Positions 41,631 to 52,549 of a DNA stretch of 64,000 nucleotides are shown piece by piece. The position numbers were made by a program, and so were the translations under genes. The notes beneath the pieces were generated by a model that was given only the letters and a program-made list of their open reading frames with translations, made no database searches and had not been told where the DNA came from. Location: the NCBI GenBank assembly GCA_028534125.1, contig CM052816.1, forward strand, positions 62,312,001 to 62,376,000, given 5' to 3'. Positions within the stretch are counted from its first letter, which is position 1. Every line of letters begins with the position of its first letter. The stretch comes from Lama glama. Taxonomy: Eukaryota.

Positions 41631-43169
41631 TGAGTCTACCTATTAGCTCTAGGACCTCTGGAGATAACTAGCAGATGTTAGAATCTAAATTAGAGCAAGA
41701 ATGCCCTGAAGTAACCAAACAGTAGGCAAGGCAGAACTCTACAGTTACTCAGTATTTTTAAACATGCAGTAAAATGACTATTTGTAAACTGCTGTTAAGA
41801 GAATAAACTGATTCAATCTTTCTAGGATACAATTTGGTAACACATACCAAATCAAGATCCTAACAATTCTACTCCTAGAAATTTAGCTTAAGCAAAATGG
41901 ATGTGATATTCAGACCACAAAAGCTGAGATTTAAGGATATCAGTTTATAATAAACAAAAATTGGAAACAATCTAACTGTTTAACAGCGCGATACGGCTGA
42001 AAACATATCTAACATACTTACATATTAACAGTTTTTTGGAGAATATTTAACGACAGGAAATGCTCTAGAATGTTAAATTTTTAAAAGTTAAATACAGACC
42101 TGGAGATAGAATAGAAATTGAGTATTTCTTTTAAAGGTTTTGAATATAAGATACATAGGAGGGTTCATAGGAAATCAATATTTTAAAAGAAAAATAAAGA
42201 TTTAATATTTAAAAGAGAATCACCTGTCAGATATATTTCCTGTATCTGGGTATTCAGGAGACATAGTTTATACCCCTTGAAAGAATATAAATAAAATAGA
42301 ATTTATTTATTTGGGTTTTTATTCAGAGAGCTCATTCAAGATATGTACAGCAACTATAAAAACACATCTACAAATCAAGTTGTTAAATTTTCTTAGCAAT
42401 AATGCATGCTGTACTATTTTCTATCCCTTAAAAGTAATAATGTAGTTTACTTTTCTGGAAAGTGGCATTTGAATACCTTCAAGTATTTCCTCTTCACCAG
42501 ATCTGCTTAATAAATATTTATTGAGTTTCTAAAAGGGGCCAGGTGAAAATATGAATGAAAAACGGTCAATGCCTTCAAGGAGCTGTAGTGAAAGCTGCCA
42601 TCAAGTAATAAATGACATCTTCCTTTGGTGGCTCAAACCAGGAATTTATTCATGGACAAAGGAGAAAATGCTAAGTGACATTTCAATTTGTTTTTATAAA
42701 ACAAAACCAAAACTTTTTATGCACACTCTACAATGACACAGATTAAGTTTACTTCCTGCATTGAAACAGCAAAACACAGAGCAAATATATGTTAAAATAA
42801 ATTAAATTTGAATAGTAGGCTTTATTATCTTGATATAATTCCTCTAAATTATATACTTGACTTGATTTATTTTCATACAGAAGAGAAATATATTTAGGGA
42901 TATTCCCCCTTTAAAAGTCCCTCTCTTGGTTAGACTCCTTCAGAAGTACTATCATATTGTTAAAGAAAGGGGTTAAGGGCAGACTTCTTAATGCTTTCTC
43001 TCAGACCATCAAAAGCAAACATTTACTTGAAAAGTAAAATGCCTTAGAGAAACAATACTGAAAGCTACTTTTTGTTAAGAATCAATCATGGTTTTCTATT
43101 ATTCTTACAATTATTGATTTTATAATATTGGATATCTGTTGTTATTTTAGCTTATTTGCATTAAGTGTT

Positions 43170-43380
43170 TTTTTGTTATATGTTTACTGAGTGCTTTATT
43201 TATTAGCTCATCAAATCCTCACAAGCCACCATCTAAGGTAGGTAGTACTATTAGCCTGATTTTAGCAAAGTTATTGAGGCACAGAGATTTTAAATGTATT
43301 TGAAGTTACTTAAATAACAGAAAACAGACAGAATTAAAACCCACAGTCTGCAGCCAGACCCTATGCTTATCACCATTACT
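43170..43380 (-). mobile_element. MIR
   Basis: 'ctcatcaaatcctcacaag...aggtaggtagtactattagcc...tgaggcacagaga'. Confidence 0.75.
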
Positions 43381-44804
43381 TTATTTTGACTCCTAAAAAC
43401 TAGAACCAGAGGTCATTCTTTAAAATCTGAAAGACATAAATTGAGGCCTGACTGGATTAATGTACTTAGAGGGTAACAAGCATATGGAACCCTAGAGAGC
43501 TAAAAAATGTAAACTTATAACATTCAGTTGAATGAATAGTTATTGGATAAATGAATTATTAGGAAAACTAAAATGTACTGAACAAAGTGCAGCCTCGATC
43601 TGCTGCAAATGAAGTAGAATCATCAAGTCCTTTCCTGGGGCCAAACACTGAGTTTTAGAGAGCCAGCAGCCCACTACCCACTGCAGTTTCCACAGTGTCT
43701 ATTACCAATCTTGCATGAGCTAAGGGACCCAGCGGCAGATCCATTTAAATGATTTGGTATGTATGACTTGGTAATGATTTGGTATGATTTAAATGATTTT
43801 GTATATATAAAACACTCAGAACACGGCCTGCACAAAAGTGCTCAGTAGATGTTACCAGTTATCATCAACATTCCTGCCAATTAAATACACTACCAATATT
43901 CTGGTGCATAAAACACCTAACATCAATTGCACAAGGACTGTTCTTGTTTATTCAGGGATTCTTCCATATACATTTAGTGATATTTTTGAGCAAATCAACT
44001 CAAAAAGATCTGTGAATTTTCCCCTTTGGGTCTGGTAACTTAGATCCAATATGTTTCCATAGTCTTCTTAGTCACAGGAGATAAAATTCTGTCAATCTGT
44101 CCAGACGCAAAGGATTATGCTATTTGGTGTTACTTGGAGATGGAAAGTGTGGGATGAGAAATAAAAGAGAACTGATGATATCTTGTCTTTCAACCTCAAT
44201 CCCCAGTATTCTACACCCCATTAAACTCTCAAGGATTTACTGAATTTCAATTTTTACTTTTCTTTCCAACAGTAGTAGTAACTATTTAAGGCCTCACATC
44301 AGAAACATGCGGGCGGATTGTCAGGAACTCTTATATCTATGTACTGATCCACAGATAAAGAAATGCAGATGTAAGACAGTACCTTTAAAAAGGAAAACTA
44401 AAAAACAACACGTAAACATCTTCTTCTGAGTCCAAATATGACTGACGCAAAGAAAGACATACTGTACTAGTCAGCAGATGAAAGACAGATCCCTGCTAAA
44501 TGAGACCGGCACTCACCTAAACAGAACTGCACTGATAAATGCCAACCTGTGCCTATAGGGGAGTGGTGGCTCAACTAAAAAAGAAATTGATAATCAATTT
44601 ACAGATAAATATTTTCTTTTAAAGATTATTATTTTGATGACTCATTTGTATATTATGTCAATGACAATCCTTTTTACATGTTATAGTTAAAAAGTATTAT
44701 TCAATTGCAACATGTTATTAAATTATCCTTTTTGTCATTACCTACTTGAAAACATTCACAAAAGTTTTCTTCATCTCAACATTACGACTTGCTTCACGAC
44801 TTGG

Positions 44805-44945
44805 ATTAAAATAACACCTCTCTGAACCTCAGTTTTCTCATCTATAAAATAAGCATACCTATGTGATAAGGTTATTATGAAAATTAGAAATAAGATATGT
44901 AAAGCGCTTAGCATTCTTTCTTTAATCACACAGCTAATAAGCAGT
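44805..44945 (+). mobile_element. MIR
   Basis: 'cctctctgaacctcagttttctcatctataaaat'. Confidence 0.8.
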
Positions 44946-45500
44946 AGTTTCAGAATTTAGGGTTTGAATGCAATAAAAGACAAAATTAGTAGTAGTACTA
45001 CAAGTACTATTCTAAGTTTTAACACTGGCTTTAAAATAACTAACTTTATAATGTAAAAAATTTTACAATAAAACTAAGAGTAAATATTCCATTTGAGGAG
45101 GCTTGCTCTCCCACTCCAACATAGATACATTCAGCTATACTTGTTCTCAATTGCTATTTTATTTTTCATTATTTGAGCACTTAAGGTTCATGAGTGATCT
45201 TTAACAAACTATTCCAATTCAGTCATGAAAGAAAAGGGGGAAGAAATTAGAAACAACTTCATACCATATTCAACAAACAACTTTTAACTGCCTATAATGT
45301 TTTGACTTATGAAGTATTAAGATGAAAGACACACAGGCCCTGTCCTTTAGAGGCTCACAGTCTAGTCAGAGCATGCACACAAATCTTAAAATGAGTTACA
45401 TGTTATTATCCAGGCGTTTGTAAGAGCTTAGGAGATAGCGAAGCAGCTAAATATGCTGGGTGAGTTGATCAAAGGTTAATATTTAAAATGAGTCTAAAGA

Positions 45501-46187
45501 CAACCTATGGAATGGGAAAAAATTTTTGCAAATGAAACCGACAAAGGCTTGATCTCCAGAATATATAAGCAGCTCATACAACTCAATAAGAAGAAAATAA
45601 ACCCAATCCAAAAATGGGCAGAAGACCTAAACAAGCAATTCACCAAGGAAGACATACANNNNNNNNNNNNNNNNNNNNNNNNNNNNNNNNNNNNNNNNNN
45701 NNNNNNNNNNNNNNNNNNNNNNNNNNNNNNNNNNNNNNNNNNNNNNNNNNNNNNNNNNAACATAACGCCATTTGCAGCAACATGGATGCTCCTGGAGAAT
45801 GTCATTCTAAGTGAAGTAAGCCAGAAAGAGAAAGAAAAACACCATATGAGATTGCTCATATGTGGAATCTAAAAATCAAAAAAACAAAAAAACAAAGCAT
45901 AAATACAAAACAGAAATAGACTCATAGACATAGAACACAAACTCCACTCCAGGGGAGTGGAGGGAGTGAAGGGATAGACTGGGATTTCAAAATTGTAGAA
46001 TAGATAAACAAGATTATACTGTATAGCACAGGGAAATATATACAAGATCTTACAGTAGCTCACAGAGAAAGGAATGTGACAATGAATATATATATGTTCA
46101 TGTATAATTGAAAAATTGTGCTCTACACTGGAATTTGACGCAACATTGTAAAATGACTATAAATCAATAAAAAATGTTAAAAAAAAT
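45501..46187 (+). mobile_element. Young L1 3' fragment with TSD (contains a 100-N gap at 45659-45758)
   Basis: ORF2 C-terminal peptide EWEKIFAN...FAATWMLLENVILSEVSQ. TSD 'aaaatgagtctaaaga' at 45485-45500 and 46188-46203, at a tt/aaaa endonuclease site. Confidence 0.96.
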
Positions 46188-46798
46188 AAAATGAGTCTAA
46201 AGAATGAGTAAATTCCTCAATGGAGAATGTAGAGTAGAGAATCAAAACCAAGAACAGATACACAAGAGTAAGTTACCACTTTCAAGGAACTGAAACTTGG
46301 ACCAAAGAGAGGCAATAGGGAGAGCTGACAGGGATGAAATGGAGGAAGATAAAAAAAGAAATGTAGAGTGGGAATAAATAACCCTTCTCCTATTTTTTGG
46401 CAATATGACATCTTTAATTTAAGATTCTCGGCAGAACATGGCAGAAATAGTATACTCACAGAAAGAAGAGCCAATGCTACATTATAATGATTTTTGTTAC
46501 CATTTTCACTTCTTTAAAGGGATAAGAGTAAAAGGTACTGGCCCCGTGAAGAGAGGAGAATCAACAATGCCCAATGTACAACTAGTCAAGATTTGGATAA
46601 TATGACAATCATTCCAGATGGGATGTGGAATATCAGCACAACATTGGTGTTGAATAGGAGGGAAAACTGAATGGATTAAAATGACATGCAGAAGAACCAA
46701 ATGCAATAGCATCACAGGCTCCTCCAAAGAACTCTCCATGATATTTCTGACAAAGTGGTCCTGTTAATACTACCAGAAACTCATTAAAGAGGCAAGTA

Positions 46799-47076
46799 CA
46801 GTGGGTCCTTGATGAACACGGCTTTGATTTGTGTGAGTATACTTATATATGGATTTCTTTTTCAATAAATATATTCTACAGCACCACACCATCTACAGTT
46901 GGTTGAATCCATGGATGCCGAACTGTGGATACTGAGGGCCGACTATAAAGTTATAATTGGATTTTTTTTTATTGAAGTACAGTCAGTCTACAATTTTGTG
47001 TCAATTTCTGGTGTACAGCATAATGATTGTGCAAGGGTTGGCACCCCTAATTCCCATGTCGTTCTAGAGTCATCTG
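46799..47076. mobile_element. Tigger2-family MITE with TA TSD, nested in the MULE transposase
   Basis: Ends 'cagtgggtccttgatgaacacgg' and 'ccatgtcgttctagagtcatctg' are imperfect TIRs; TA at 46797-46798 and 47077-47078. Confidence 0.88.
46962..47028 (-). mobile_element. Tiny L1 3' end nested in the Tigger MITE
   Basis: 'tttttttttattgaagtacagtcagtctacaattttgtgtcaatttctggtgtacagcata'. Confidence 0.8.
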
Positions 47077-47400
47077 TAAATAGAATTCAAAACAGACTGA
47101 CCTCCAAACCCAACTTTACTGCATGGAATTGAAATTCCAGAAGAGTATAAGGTGACCAGATGTGGAAAACCATCTCTTGTGCATAATTCTGGTGTCCCAG
47201 ATGAGAAAAGATTTCTTATTTACACAACTTGGACAATTTGATACTTAAGTGCCAGTACCGTATTATTCAATGACAATAGCTTCAAGACACCAACAATTAC
47301 AGTTCACTGAGTTATTTACTATACACCGCATAATATCAAGTTATACTATACCAGTGATTTATGTACTAACAATGAAAAGGTGAGAGGACACTTACATATC

Positions 47401-47440
47401 GATAGATTGATAGATTGATTGATTGATCTATCTATCTATA
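47401..47440. repeat. Compound (GATA/GATT)n-(TCTA)n microsatellite inside the transposase
   Basis: 'gatagattgatagattgattgattgatctatctatctata'. Confidence 0.85.
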
Positions 47441-48295
47441 TGACAAAGTACTTGCATTTGCATGGAAAAGAAACCTCAATATTAACCATCTAGTGTGCAT
47501 GATGGATTTGGAGATTGCAGATACGAATGTAATTCAAACTACGTCTACCCAAAGCACAAGTCAAAGAATGTTTGTTTCACTTTTCACAACCACTGTGGCA
47601 AAAAAAAATCTTCTTTGTGTCTAACTATATGAGTATATGGCAATGGAAAGTGATACCCATAAGAAGGTACCCATGTCATTTGGACTTCCATTTGTGCCTT
47701 TGCAAGATGTAAATGAAACTGAGTACATTATGAAGAGTGCGGAAGACAATTTAGAAGACTTAATGAATTATGTTGAGAGAGTGTATGTCCATGGAAGGTG
47801 TGGCAAAGGCAAAAGAAGACCAGAAGCTCTAAGATCTCAACCAGACATTTGGAATGTTTATACATTCGTACTGAACAGCAATCACAAGATGAATAATGCA
47901 GTGAAAGGCTAGCACAGAAAATTCCAGAAGTTGATGGTAGAGCATCATCCTTCAAATTGGAAATTTCCTGAAGTGTTAAAAGACAAACAGCAAAGCAACG
48001 AACAAGTTATCACCCAAGTTCTTGGTGATCACACTCAAATATGGCCACCAACTTCACAATATACTGACAAGATAAAATTTGTATAAATGAAATTAACAGA
48101 TTTAATGAATATAAAGCCAATAATCAAGTTGATAAATACTTGAGAGTAACTGCTCATCAACTTAAGAGCAACTAACCAAACTTGATGAAAAGGAAGAAAA
48201 CGAATAGATGTGAACTCCAAAATTCATCGTGAATCACAATAAAAATAATACAAATACAATTTTAAAAAGTTCAGTGTTTGTATTATTTAACAAAT

Positions 48296-48346
48296 CATGA
48301 ACCAAATGTCTCAATGGACATTTTGGACAGGACCAAATGTCCTGCA
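48296..48346. repeat. Putative right terminal repeat region of the MULE element
   Basis: 'accaaatgtc' at 48301 and 48332, with the inverted unit 'ggacattttgg' at 48316 between them. Confidence 0.6.
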
Positions 48347-50294
48347 AAGGTTTAGACATATCCCTCATAAATGGGGATTCACAGGTTTTTAGGTAAGAGA
48401 CTGTGGCGACCAGATTTTAGATGCAGTTCAAGAATAAGATAGTAAGAGTTTGAAACAGAGGCTCAAAAAGTGGGAGTAGACGAAAAGAGACAGTTTAAAC
48501 ATAGAAGAAATTAAGTTTAATAATCAGTTATATAAGAGTGTGATAACCAGTAATATGTGCGTAATGAAGAAAATGGAGTCATGAAAGACTCCTATGCTTC
48601 TAACTTTGGCAACTTGTTATATGATACTATAAATATGGACAGAAAATTAAGGAAAAGGAATTGGCTATCTTAGAAAATTTTAGAATTTCAAGTGGATTCA
48701 ATGTCACCATGAAAGTAGCTATTTTTCACAAAATGAGTGCATACACCTTCTTGAAGTGTGGCTACCTTTGATAAATGTATATATTAAACTTAAGGGGGAA
48801 AACGTGTTGTTACTTCTTGTTATAGAAGCAATGTATGTTTATTTTACATATCTGGATGAGAAAAATAAATCTTTGTAAATCTTTGTAAAATTTTGATGTT
48901 TTCTTCCAATTTTTCTCATGTTATCTGTAAAATACACGTTTGCTTTGTTTTTCATTTAACATTATGACATGGCATTTTAAAGAAGTATCTTAAACATACT
49001 CTCAGGATCAAGGTAAAATAAGAAAGGGTAACTGCCATCTAGAAAGCTCAATCACATAAGACCATGAGTTAGAAAGGCACTGACCATGCTATGAGTCTTT
49101 AATTAAAAGGAAAATTTCTTTACTAATTGAATAACAAATGGGAGGAAAAGACATGTCAGTAGCACTTAACCATCTAAATCTTACTTTCTGTGGATGAGGC
49201 ACTCAACATGTGTAAGTGACCAAGGCTCAGGCGAACTAACTAATGTGCACAAGATCACACAGCTAAACTGTCAGTGGAGCCAGAATTCAAACCTGCTGGG
49301 ACTTCCGGTTCTCTTTCCAGTATGCTCTGCTGCCTCTTCTCAATTACAGGCCATGCAGAATTAACAAGTGTTCTGAAATCGCCCAGGGCACTCATGTGGA
49401 ATGCAAGGTGATTATCTAGGGCAGTGAGTCTCAACTCCTAGTGGTGGTGAAGAACCATGTTGAGTGGTAAAACAGATAATTTCTGTGGGCCTTTACAGTT
49501 TTAACATTCTGTGACTGTGCTCTTCAGCAGGGTTACTGAACTTCTTTCTTTAAGCTCCCAGTACAATTTTCCTTCACAGAGTTTTGGTGTATGTTACCCA
49601 ATATATATTGGTCTAAAGTCTCTTCTCCGAGGCTTGAACACAATTCCCATATCAATTATTAGCGAAAAGTGTGCACAAGAGCCCACAACCAAAACCTGAC
49701 CCACTGTGTCACTTGTAACTGTTATTCTTTTCAATGGTAATTATTATTAATTTCTCATTACATTAATTTTTGAATTTCTTTTATTTTTGGTTTCTTTTAA
49801 AAATTATTTGCATTGGCTATTTCATTTATTATTTTAGTACTTCATTTTGCTTGAAGTAAGGGACATAATTTGAAAATGAAAAAGGCAACAAACTGCCCTT
49901 TGGCAATCGCCTAACTCCTGATATATGATAGGCATTGCCCACTTTTTAAAATTCAGATAATGCACAGTGTAAAGAGAGCACTGTCTAAAGTAATGGTTTA
50001 AAATCCTGGCTGCACATTATTAGAATAATACAGAAAGTTTTTTAAAAATGCTAGTGACTAGGCCCACTCCCATGAGCTGAACAGGACTTTCTGCTGCAGG
50101 GAGGGGTTAGGGAGAACAAAGGCATTATTTTAAAATCTCCCAACAAACTCTTTTTAAGCCAAAGGGCCGTAAAATCGTAAGAGAGCAAAATACTGTCAAA
50201 ACAACCAGTTTTCCACAGAGTTTTCCAGAGAAAACAAAAGACAACTGAGAATTAACCCTTAATATTCTGAAGTTCACAATACTTGTTATATAAA

Positions 50295-50800
50295 TGGTCT
50301 GCAAAGACGGGCCTAATAATTCCTGCTATGTCTGTATGCATGTTTCTTCTCAATATGACTTTGTTGCTCCTCTTTAAAAAGGAAGAATTCATTTCTCCAC
50401 TCATAAATTTGATCTACCCTCCTAATCTGCTTTGACCAACAATATATAGTAGAAGTGATGTTTTGTGACTTTCAAGCCTGTGCTTCAAGCAGTCTGCAGC
50501 TTCCACTCCAGCTGTCTTGAAAGGCAATGCTGCCATGTGAAGATCCTTAATGATAAAAGACCACCTGGTGAAAGAGGACAAACTGAGACCAGCATCAACC
50601 TCCTGATGTACGAGTGAGGCCATCTTGGACCTTCCAGGCCCAGCCATGTGCTAGATGATATGGCCAAAACCAGCAGAAGACATGACCAGCTGATACTAGC
50701 CCCAAGTGCTAACCACAGAACTGGGAACAAATAAAATAGATGTTTTTCTTTAAGCCAGTACATTTTGAGGCAGCATTATAGCAAAAGCTAACTAATACAG
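50295..50800 (+). mobile_element. MLT1G/H-like solo LTR
   Basis: 'gctttgaccaacaatatatagtagaagtgatg...aaataaaatagatgtttttctttaagccag...ctaactaataca'. Confidence 0.75.
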
Positions 50801-52549
50801 TAGTTTTAATGACTATGGTAAATTTTAAAGACAAAGTAATACATCTTCCTTACTTTGCCAAAAGTAATATTTATGTGCTTGAAATATTTGCTCATGTATT
50901 TTTAAAAAACAATGAAAAAAGCCAGAAGTATAGTTTAGCAAACACAGTCTTTCTGTTTTCTTTGAGAATAATTTAGTAACCTATTTTAGGTTGGACCTTG
51001 AAATGCAGGATCAAAACACAAGAAAAGATCTTTTATACCATATAATAAGCTATTGTAAAAATAATTCTATATAATCATTTCATTTATATTTAAAAATGTA
51101 TTTCTCACTTCCTATATGAAGTCTCAAAACTTTTAAAAATCACTCTAACACAAAGGATACACTTTTTGGATAAATGTATGAAATTACTCAAAATTGTATC
51201 AAGTTTTCATTATACATTACTTTTTCACAAAAGTTTGCTAAATGGCTCTTACATTAATCCATTAATTTAATAACTGTTTATTTGAGTGTCTACATTCTCA
51301 AAGATGTCTGCTTTAGTCATTTCCACTGACTCTTAGGGACATATAGCAGAGCAGAGGAAGTACGGCAAATCTGGGGAGTTACAGCCAAAGGAATAATGAT
51401 TTCTGCCTAAAAAAGTATGGAAGACTCCAAGAAGAAGCTGTTCTCTTCATTGTGCCTTAAGAATGATCATCATTTCAAAAGTATGCTCTGGGTCCAGGAG
51501 GACAATCCAGGGAAGCAAAATCACAAAATAAAGCTAAGAGGTGAAAAATGTTCAGAGTACAGTAAGCAGTCCAACTTGGCTGGAATATAGGATACAGGCA
51601 CAGAAACTCTGGGATACAACTGACACTAGATCAGCAAAGGCACAGAATGGCAACCCAGGTATTAATTATTCAGTAGGCAATTATAGTCAAAGAGGTTTAG
51701 GAAGACAGCAGTAAAAGGAACAAATGGAGCTGTGGACATGCTGATGTACACTGAAAATTAGGGAGGTCAGCTGGGAGGCTACTTGCAAATTCCAAATGAG
51801 AAGAATATTATCTATTACTGTAATAAACAATCCTGGGAGTAACAAGAGAAAGAAGCAGAACTAAGAAGGGATATGAATAGAAGCAAAGGAAAATCGTAAG
51901 GATAGTAAGCCTATCCACAGGTACTGACCTGAAGACGCTGTGCACAACTCCTCAACTGTACCAGCACTCAGAAAAATAACTACTTGTAAGTAAGATGTTA
52001 AACCCTGGTGGCTCTTTTTCCTCCTTAGTGCTCGGAAGAGACTTATTCAGCTTATCATCAAGAACTGCCCAAAGGCTATACATTCCTCAGATCTGATCTC
52101 TGCTCCTTGGGAGTTCTTACCATTGGTCACTAAAATCTTCCTGGGGTAGTGCAACACTGTTGAATTCTCCCAGGGCCTTTCGGTGATCCTCTACAACAAA
52201 TAGTCCCTAGAATGGACTACTTGTACCCTGGTGCTTGCACCTGTGGTCCCAGCCTTCATGACACAATACCATCTGTGACTATTATCCAAACCACAAGACT
52301 TTAAAAATACTGATGCTTTAAATTCATCCATCAAAATTATTTCTGCATACCACTACAGACGTCCATCGTTTCGCTTAAGGATCTTTGCTAGATTATCCAT
52401 ATAGCTCTATAATTGCTAAAATCTAACCTGCCAAAGTATTCTAGATAGCATGTTTGCCAAAAGTTTTCAGTTTTTAGGCTTCTTGACTGTTTAATGCCTC
52501 AAAACTTATAATACAATAACATAATAACACAATGATTAATAATAACAAA

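Follow-up and report, generated by a model that had tools for sequence, protein, structure and literature searches.

A decayed Mutator-type element lies on the + strand at 46373-48349 of the window, by which we mean the whole 64,000-nucleotide stretch of Lama glama DNA analysed here, and it retains positions ~1000-2679 of the family consensus described below. The original prediction presented it as a copy complete from start to stop, which was not borne out. Similarity to sister copies begins at 46372-46397 and those copies share ~1 kb more upstream, so the window copy, beginning at consensus position 1000, is left-truncated and lacks the left end; a repeat search of the surroundings found none. 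Consensus mapping and protein alignment placed the decayed transposase frame at 46438..48207 (+), where it is broken by about a dozen frameshifting indels as well as by stops. The predicted single colinear frame held, but its length was underestimated at ~470 codons, the family frame having 491. Similarly, the TAA at 48173-48175, taken for the terminator, exists but is specific to this copy and follows a late frameshift, whereas the ancestral stop of the family is the TAG at 48205-48207.

All of the motifs named in the prediction were found at their places. The ATG at 46438 in the context aacATGG and the YW at 46536 fall within a FLYWCH zinc-finger region (46438..46643, +) delineated by tblastn with two proteins, P0020 from the whipworm Trichuris suis and P0025, and a frameshift near 46517 splits its frame. 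The first catalytic Asp (47272..47274, +; D192 of the consensus, in DGTF) is read in D-N-S-F-K, is followed by FTELFTIH at 47303, and corresponds to D228 of P0020, which is nearly invariant in 100 homologs. The second (47505..47507, +; consensus D258), in MMDLEIA, is invariant among these homologs. The CxxH motif is CLFH at 47569..47580 (+), with the Cys at 47569 and the His at 47578 corresponding to C279 and H282 by the consensus and the 100 homologs. The catalytic Glu and the Trp position next to it lie at 47904..47912 (+), read as NNAVKG*H: the Glu codon, kept in 17 of 21 copies, has become Lys at 47904, and the Trp position is a stop at 47910. Downstream lie an AATAAA at 48238..48243 (+), which, judged from its letters only, may have served the element for polyadenylation, and the right end at 48296..48349 (+), which the consensus and the ends of full copies resolve into a 46-bp inverted-repeat core plus 8 outer bases non-complementary to the left end.

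The two interruptions that the prediction had set aside as inserts are both confined to this copy. The one at 47401..47435 (+) is a tetranucleotide microsatellite expansion, as seen by comparison with other copies. The other, at 46799..47078 (unstranded) and absent from other copies, is a nested Tigger-type MITE (46799-47076, with the TA duplicated), whose own family consensus has a terminal inverted repeat plus TA, with 587 first-look candidates in the genome; we take it to be MER8. Inside the MITE is a short antisense L1 3'-tail fragment (46965..47028, -), which is 80% identical to the complement of the L1 tail at 46115-46174. Separately, the 3' part of an L1 occupies 45490-46200 of the window, 170 bp upstream of the element; it contains an assembly gap and has a target duplication of 16 bp. 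The L1 label for the tail, the antisense fragment and this portion is our assumption. Between 95 and 98% of the words of window 42001-52000 were present in 14 DNA sequencing runs from five organisms, and 6-29% in RNA runs, providing no evidence of transcription. The intronic setting given in the prediction is putative, as no host exon was identified. The window copy has no present enzyme function and no mobility.

In tblastn, P0020 aligned colinearly over 46423-48172 in five pieces scoring 55, 47, 78, 174 and 30 bits, against 26.6 bits for the best of 100 shuffled-query controls. A profile of 25 FLYWCH-MULE proteins from outside the whipworms matched four segments of the window, all on the + strand, the best at 117 bits. 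The Pfam check suggested with the prediction gave a divided answer. No MULE or FLYWCH match was obtained in any of the six raw window frames, because of the frameshifting indels, nor for the 209-aa piece, but sister copies did match: the genome-wide top PF10551 match is a copy of the family (27.9 bits, cut-off 27.6), and the copy L002 matched PF04500 with E 0.0044, below the cut-off. P0020 itself passed both Pfam cut-offs, with 45.5 bits against PF04500. In the PDB, nothing was found with P0020 alone, and the sole match of the profile was human FLYWCH1 (2rpr). The window copy is almost certainly a dead FLYWCH-MULE, that is, a Phantom-type Mutator DNA transposon.

The transposase was reconstructed as a consensus of 24 copies among the fetched loci, after duplicates and the shortest pieces had been dropped. 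It is one 491-codon frame with two residual stops in columns of mixed codons, which indicate CpG decay, and it contains the FLYWCH finger, D192, D258, C279xxH282 and E390. The catalytic acids are thus 65 and 131 residues apart, within the spacings of 60-76 and 120-135 given for most arthropod MULE clades in PMC13359780. The catalytic and CxxH positions are invariant or nearly so in the 100 homologs, and the profile of 25 proteins scored the consensus at 545 bits.

A DNA search of the same genome with 47440-48360 returned 55 matches, which merged into ~26 distinct loci once duplicates were removed (40 of 84 candidates scored); the longer matches were 71-83% identical over 165 bp or more. On small contigs (for example C396882/C404125, C141282, C83510 and C102397), many matches recur as near-identical pairs or within-contig mirror images, which suggests redundant assembly and inflates the raw counts. 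Full copies are ~2.6 kb long (2.4-2.7 kb without nested inserts). The left and right cores of the consensus are identical as an inverted repeat at 45 of 46 bases and lie within 8 non-complementary outer bases. Read inward, the outer motifs are GATTAGC or GGTTAGC on the left and CCTTGCA on the right, each followed by a GGA-type triplet and, behind it, by subterminal units whose number varies between copies. An exact 21-nt end pattern had 59 matches in the genome, of which 36 lie on large contigs (reversed control, 0), and none in metagenome contigs. Both ends could be placed at 16 of 22 pattern sites (20 fetched plus two earlier), and these places are only 70-373 bp long, which makes many members of the family MITEs. 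Given how often an exact 21-mer would be expected to survive, we infer a total family size of a few hundred elements.

Target duplications of at least 75% identity flanked 12 of the 16 short copies (ten with 8 bp and two with 9 bp, where shuffling gave 0.26 on average and 3 at most) and 5 of the 12 longer two-ended copies (shuffled pairing maximum 1), leaving 4 short and 7 longer copies with no clear duplication. Two observations concern individual copies. L050 (G000:C23:8.766 Mb) and L028 (G000:C32:15.760 Mb) have in common their 3' part and right flank, 78% identical over 838 bp; the shared flank ends in an A-rich L1-like tail and is an old duplication or a retroposed chimera. Another copy carries a ~500-bp insert at L002:2588-3093 that resembles an LTR, a label we assume.

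The DDE and CxxH motifs, the 8-9 bp duplications, inside the usual range of 8-10 bp, and the inverted terminal and subterminal repeats are features of the Mutator/MULE superfamily, while the FLYWCH finger followed by a MULE domain in one protein and the asymmetric ends, of the TIR, sub-TIR or Foldback-like kind, are those of the Phantom subclass, defined in PMC3169594 by an N-terminal FLYWCH finger plus a MULE domain in one protein. This assignment uses domain order and ends, the trees being built from database hits alone. The prediction of a once-autonomous FLYWCH-MULE of Phantom type accordingly agreed with the domain order, the D-D-CxxH-E spacing, the multicopy family, the composite ends and the target duplications. 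Tm1 of root-knot nematodes, a Phantom element of 2593 bp (PMC3169594), is similar in size (~2.6 kb), in its FLYWCH-MULE protein (496 aa versus 491 aa in the family), in its asymmetric 7-bp outer motifs, GGA and variable tandem units, in its MITE-like derivatives and in its 8-10 bp duplications. The two differ in that Tm1-A is split into seven predicted exons and its duplications are mostly of 9 bp, whereas the family has one colinear frame and mostly 8-bp duplications. The repeat unit of Tm1 is also another one, and Tm1-A, absent from the near protein matches, is likened by description. Likewise by description, Muta1 of Aedes aegypti resembles the family in its ~500-aa FLYWCH+DDE protein, its terminal motif plus subterminal repeats and its 8 or 9 bp duplications, but is active, and its ends are symmetric, 145 bp long and carry a palindromic terminal motif of 10 bp (PMC5499845).

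We dated the family from the decay of its copies. At non-CpG sites, divergence from the consensus was 0.11-0.23 (mean 0.15; window copy 0.13), and the pooled pN/pS over 23 copies was 1.10, which indicates neutral decay with no selection after insertion. At 2-2.5 neutral substitutions per site and billion years, the divergence would correspond to a single burst some 55-75 million years ago. For the family of the nested Tigger-type MITE, the mean divergence is 0.18 over 25 copies (window MITE, 0.16), and at two further loci a Mutator end abuts a partial MITE-like flank, presumably MER2. From the similar divergence and the abutting loci, the Mutator family and Tigger-type MITEs likely moved at around the same time.

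Where they are still in frame, decayed proteins from public assemblies had 68-81% identity with the consensus, and two of them, searched in the llama genome, gave matches of at most 67% and 66%, so the family is likely present in other mammals. One decayed protein, P0003, shares 8 of 29 derived residues with the local copy L033, above any local pair (background mean 6%, maximum 16%); P0005 shares 5 of 25 with local copies, and P0002 and P0014 gave weak signals. With one of four independent proteins clearly above background, these residues are suggestive only of orthology between the decayed proteins and local copies.

The nearest intact relatives are in whipworms. The best match of the genomic-copy query was T. 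suis, and the consensus is identical to T. suis P0020 at 337 of 488 positions (69%; 84% similar), to three more T. suis proteins at 65-66% and to a pair of diverged proteins, one in T. suis and one in T. trichiura, at 54% and 48%, as against at most 47% for the intact non-whipworm proteins among 274 fetched. The four closest proteins, KFD61048.1 (P0020), KFD49637.1 (P0001), KHJ40130.1 and KHJ40540.1 (65-69% to the consensus), have the same domain order and catalytic motifs and fall into one clade with it; they differ in having uninterrupted nematode frames, are annotated merely as hypothetical or domain proteins, and are known here from proteins alone. P0001 and P0020 are 72% identical, the T. 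suis families differing among themselves as much as from the consensus. Against 1.84 billion representatives, P0020 gave whipworm matches at 88% and 47%, and others at 46% or less among the best 150 listed; this search covered predicted proteins in 50% clusters, which hide members, so unannotated closer elements would be missed. Of four pattern matches to P0020 in viral contigs, none was confirmed as a relative. In the tree, the consensus (on a short terminal branch of 0.16) and six Trichuris proteins form one clade with support 100/100 (SH-aLRT 100 in a quick 47-protein tree), the nearest protein outside it being P0025, while support for a branch uniting the six Trichuris proteins to the exclusion of the mammal is 56/38, which neither establishes nor rejects such a group.

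The diverged pair consists of FLYWCH-MULE proteins that are 69% identical between T. suis (P0023/P0277) and T. trichiura (P0029). In both, the His of CxxH is missing, as is the motif that normally precedes the Glu, and they are found in three T. suis assemblies and in T. trichiura; from these residues, the pair is likely a domesticated transposase gene. Its presence in both species suggests long residence in the genus and would favour the worm as reservoir.

The identity of 69% versus at most 47%, together with the 100/100 clade, makes horizontal transfer likely, and we hold a horizontal origin of the family to be very probable. If an ancient MULE lineage had instead been inherited vertically since nematodes and mammals diverged, that gap, over the whole protein, would speak against it, as would the single short burst followed by neutral decay; we consider this reading highly improbable. 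The roles within a transfer are less firmly placed. An unsampled third host or vector may have given the element to both mammal and whipworm, or the worm may have taken it from the mammal: the within-clade order is weakly supported, and 31% protein divergence, with identity below that of recent transfers, leaves space for an intermediate host. Yet whipworms have several divergent lineages, one of them in two species, whereas the mammal has one star-like family, and no other taxon is close among predicted proteins, nor is there a viral-contig relative. We therefore consider such a third host or reversed direction unlikely, if still a serious alternative, and lean slightly towards the whipworm lineage having been the donor and not a fellow recipient. 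A domesticated gene of the host or its processed pseudogene, for which the strong ATG context and the AATAAA behind the stop might speak, or host contamination in the whipworm entries, would be the least probable account of all. The host-gene version was rejected on the ends and target duplications of many copies, the lack of an intact frame among the fetched copies and the pN/pS near 1; the contamination version was rejected on the uninterrupted whipworm frames, which several assemblies place on contigs 0.04-2.8 Mb long. A dead, left-truncated Phantom-type copy, of a family that entered the early mammalian germ line by horizontal transfer involving the Trichuris lineage, is the reading we consider probable as a whole.

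Whether the family is already named is a separate matter. The mismatch with Ricksha put forward in the prediction agrees with the measured ends, and Ricksha's ends and peptide are presumably also unlike those of the family. Although Ricksha/Ricksha_0 is likewise a Mutator-superfamily fossil of a placental genome (PMC5753468), it is described with 79-bp inverted repeats (PMC1431705, PMC3531169), which the family lacks, and with an ERVL/MLT2B piece (PMC5753468, PMC1431705, PMC3531169), so that on these descriptions a Ricksha subfamily is very unlikely. Prior curation in Dfam, Repbase or RepeatMasker, or as the horse Phantom, has a chance approaching even, and in that case only the whipworm link could be new. 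A horse Phantom claim (Marquez and Pritham 2010) is cited in PMC6446971 and PMC3169594, the former mentioning it as an earlier-reported MULE; decayed family members occur in other genomes, and RepeatMasker already finds 374 of 437 human MULE-MuDR fossils. On the other side, PMC6446971 reports that no transposase could be detected in the horse sequence or in the three placental Repbase entries, Ricksha entries stand alone in the Repbase human MuDR list as given in PMC5753468, and the horse-type element could instead be a second MULE family of the llama genome. Outside subscription papers and repeat databases, no publication on a whipworm-mammal or camelid MULE was found, and the main text of PMC10162687 contains no MULE, MuDR or Mutator. 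The family is at least little-noticed among Mutator transposons, if not new. The fuller claim is that whipworms passed on to an early ancestor of mammals a Mutator family so far undescribed, whose transposase can be reconstructed in full, and that the worms themselves still keep relatives with intact frames as well as a sister gene that is likely domesticated; we put it forward tentatively, as somewhat doubtful in its entirety.

The history we propose opens with a likely horizontal transfer in which the whipworm lineage took part and through which the family reached the germ line of an early ancestor of mammals; from there it would have spread by cut-and-paste transposition. By analogy with Muta1 of Aedes (PMC5499845), the transposase would bind the terminal motif and subterminal repeats, the ends would be excised via a hairpin on the flanking DNA, and strand transfer to a staggered target would be followed by host repair. 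This activity may have been a single burst, when Tigger MITEs also moved, ending in extinction, and the window copy would afterwards have lost its left arm and gained the MITE, the L1 fragment and the microsatellite. A transfer between parasitic nematodes and a mammal has a counterpart in RTE1_Sar, a nematode-shrew case with 80% DNA identity that is nested firmly inside nematodes and neutral in the mammal (PMC6542046); RTE1_Sar is a retrotransposon, whereas the present family is a DNA transposon whose direction of transfer is less firmly placed.

The window copy is inert and offers no new biology beyond the family. The family provides the full transposase, ends and target duplications of a MULE in one mammal, and its nearest intact relatives, in mammal-infecting whipworms, make a datable host-parasite transfer something to test and a marker for the duration of the Trichuris association with placental mammals. 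PMC6446971 confirmed no vertebrate MULE transposase and left the presence of MULEs in vertebrates open; a whipworm-delivered family, if true, would directly answer the published question of whether MULEs are absent from vertebrates.

Two further sets of MULE-related sequences were observed in the genome. The second MULE family (L083-L102; for example G000:C28:9665600-9667200, C8:84643300-84644100 and C26:29639800-29640600) is unrelated to the first and consists mostly of copies of 0.8-1.7 kb that carry internal deletions and have inverted ends, 60-110 bp long, made up of short repeats. It has no DNA match to the first family and 24-35% protein identity with it; it may correspond to the horse-type element that was reported, or else be one more family without a curated entry. 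Finally, L052 and L053 (G000:C22:26.469 and 26.473 Mb) are neighbouring long open frames, of 655 aa and 462 aa, that match MULE weakly and that we take to fit the domesticated ZSWIM3/ZSWIM1 pair.
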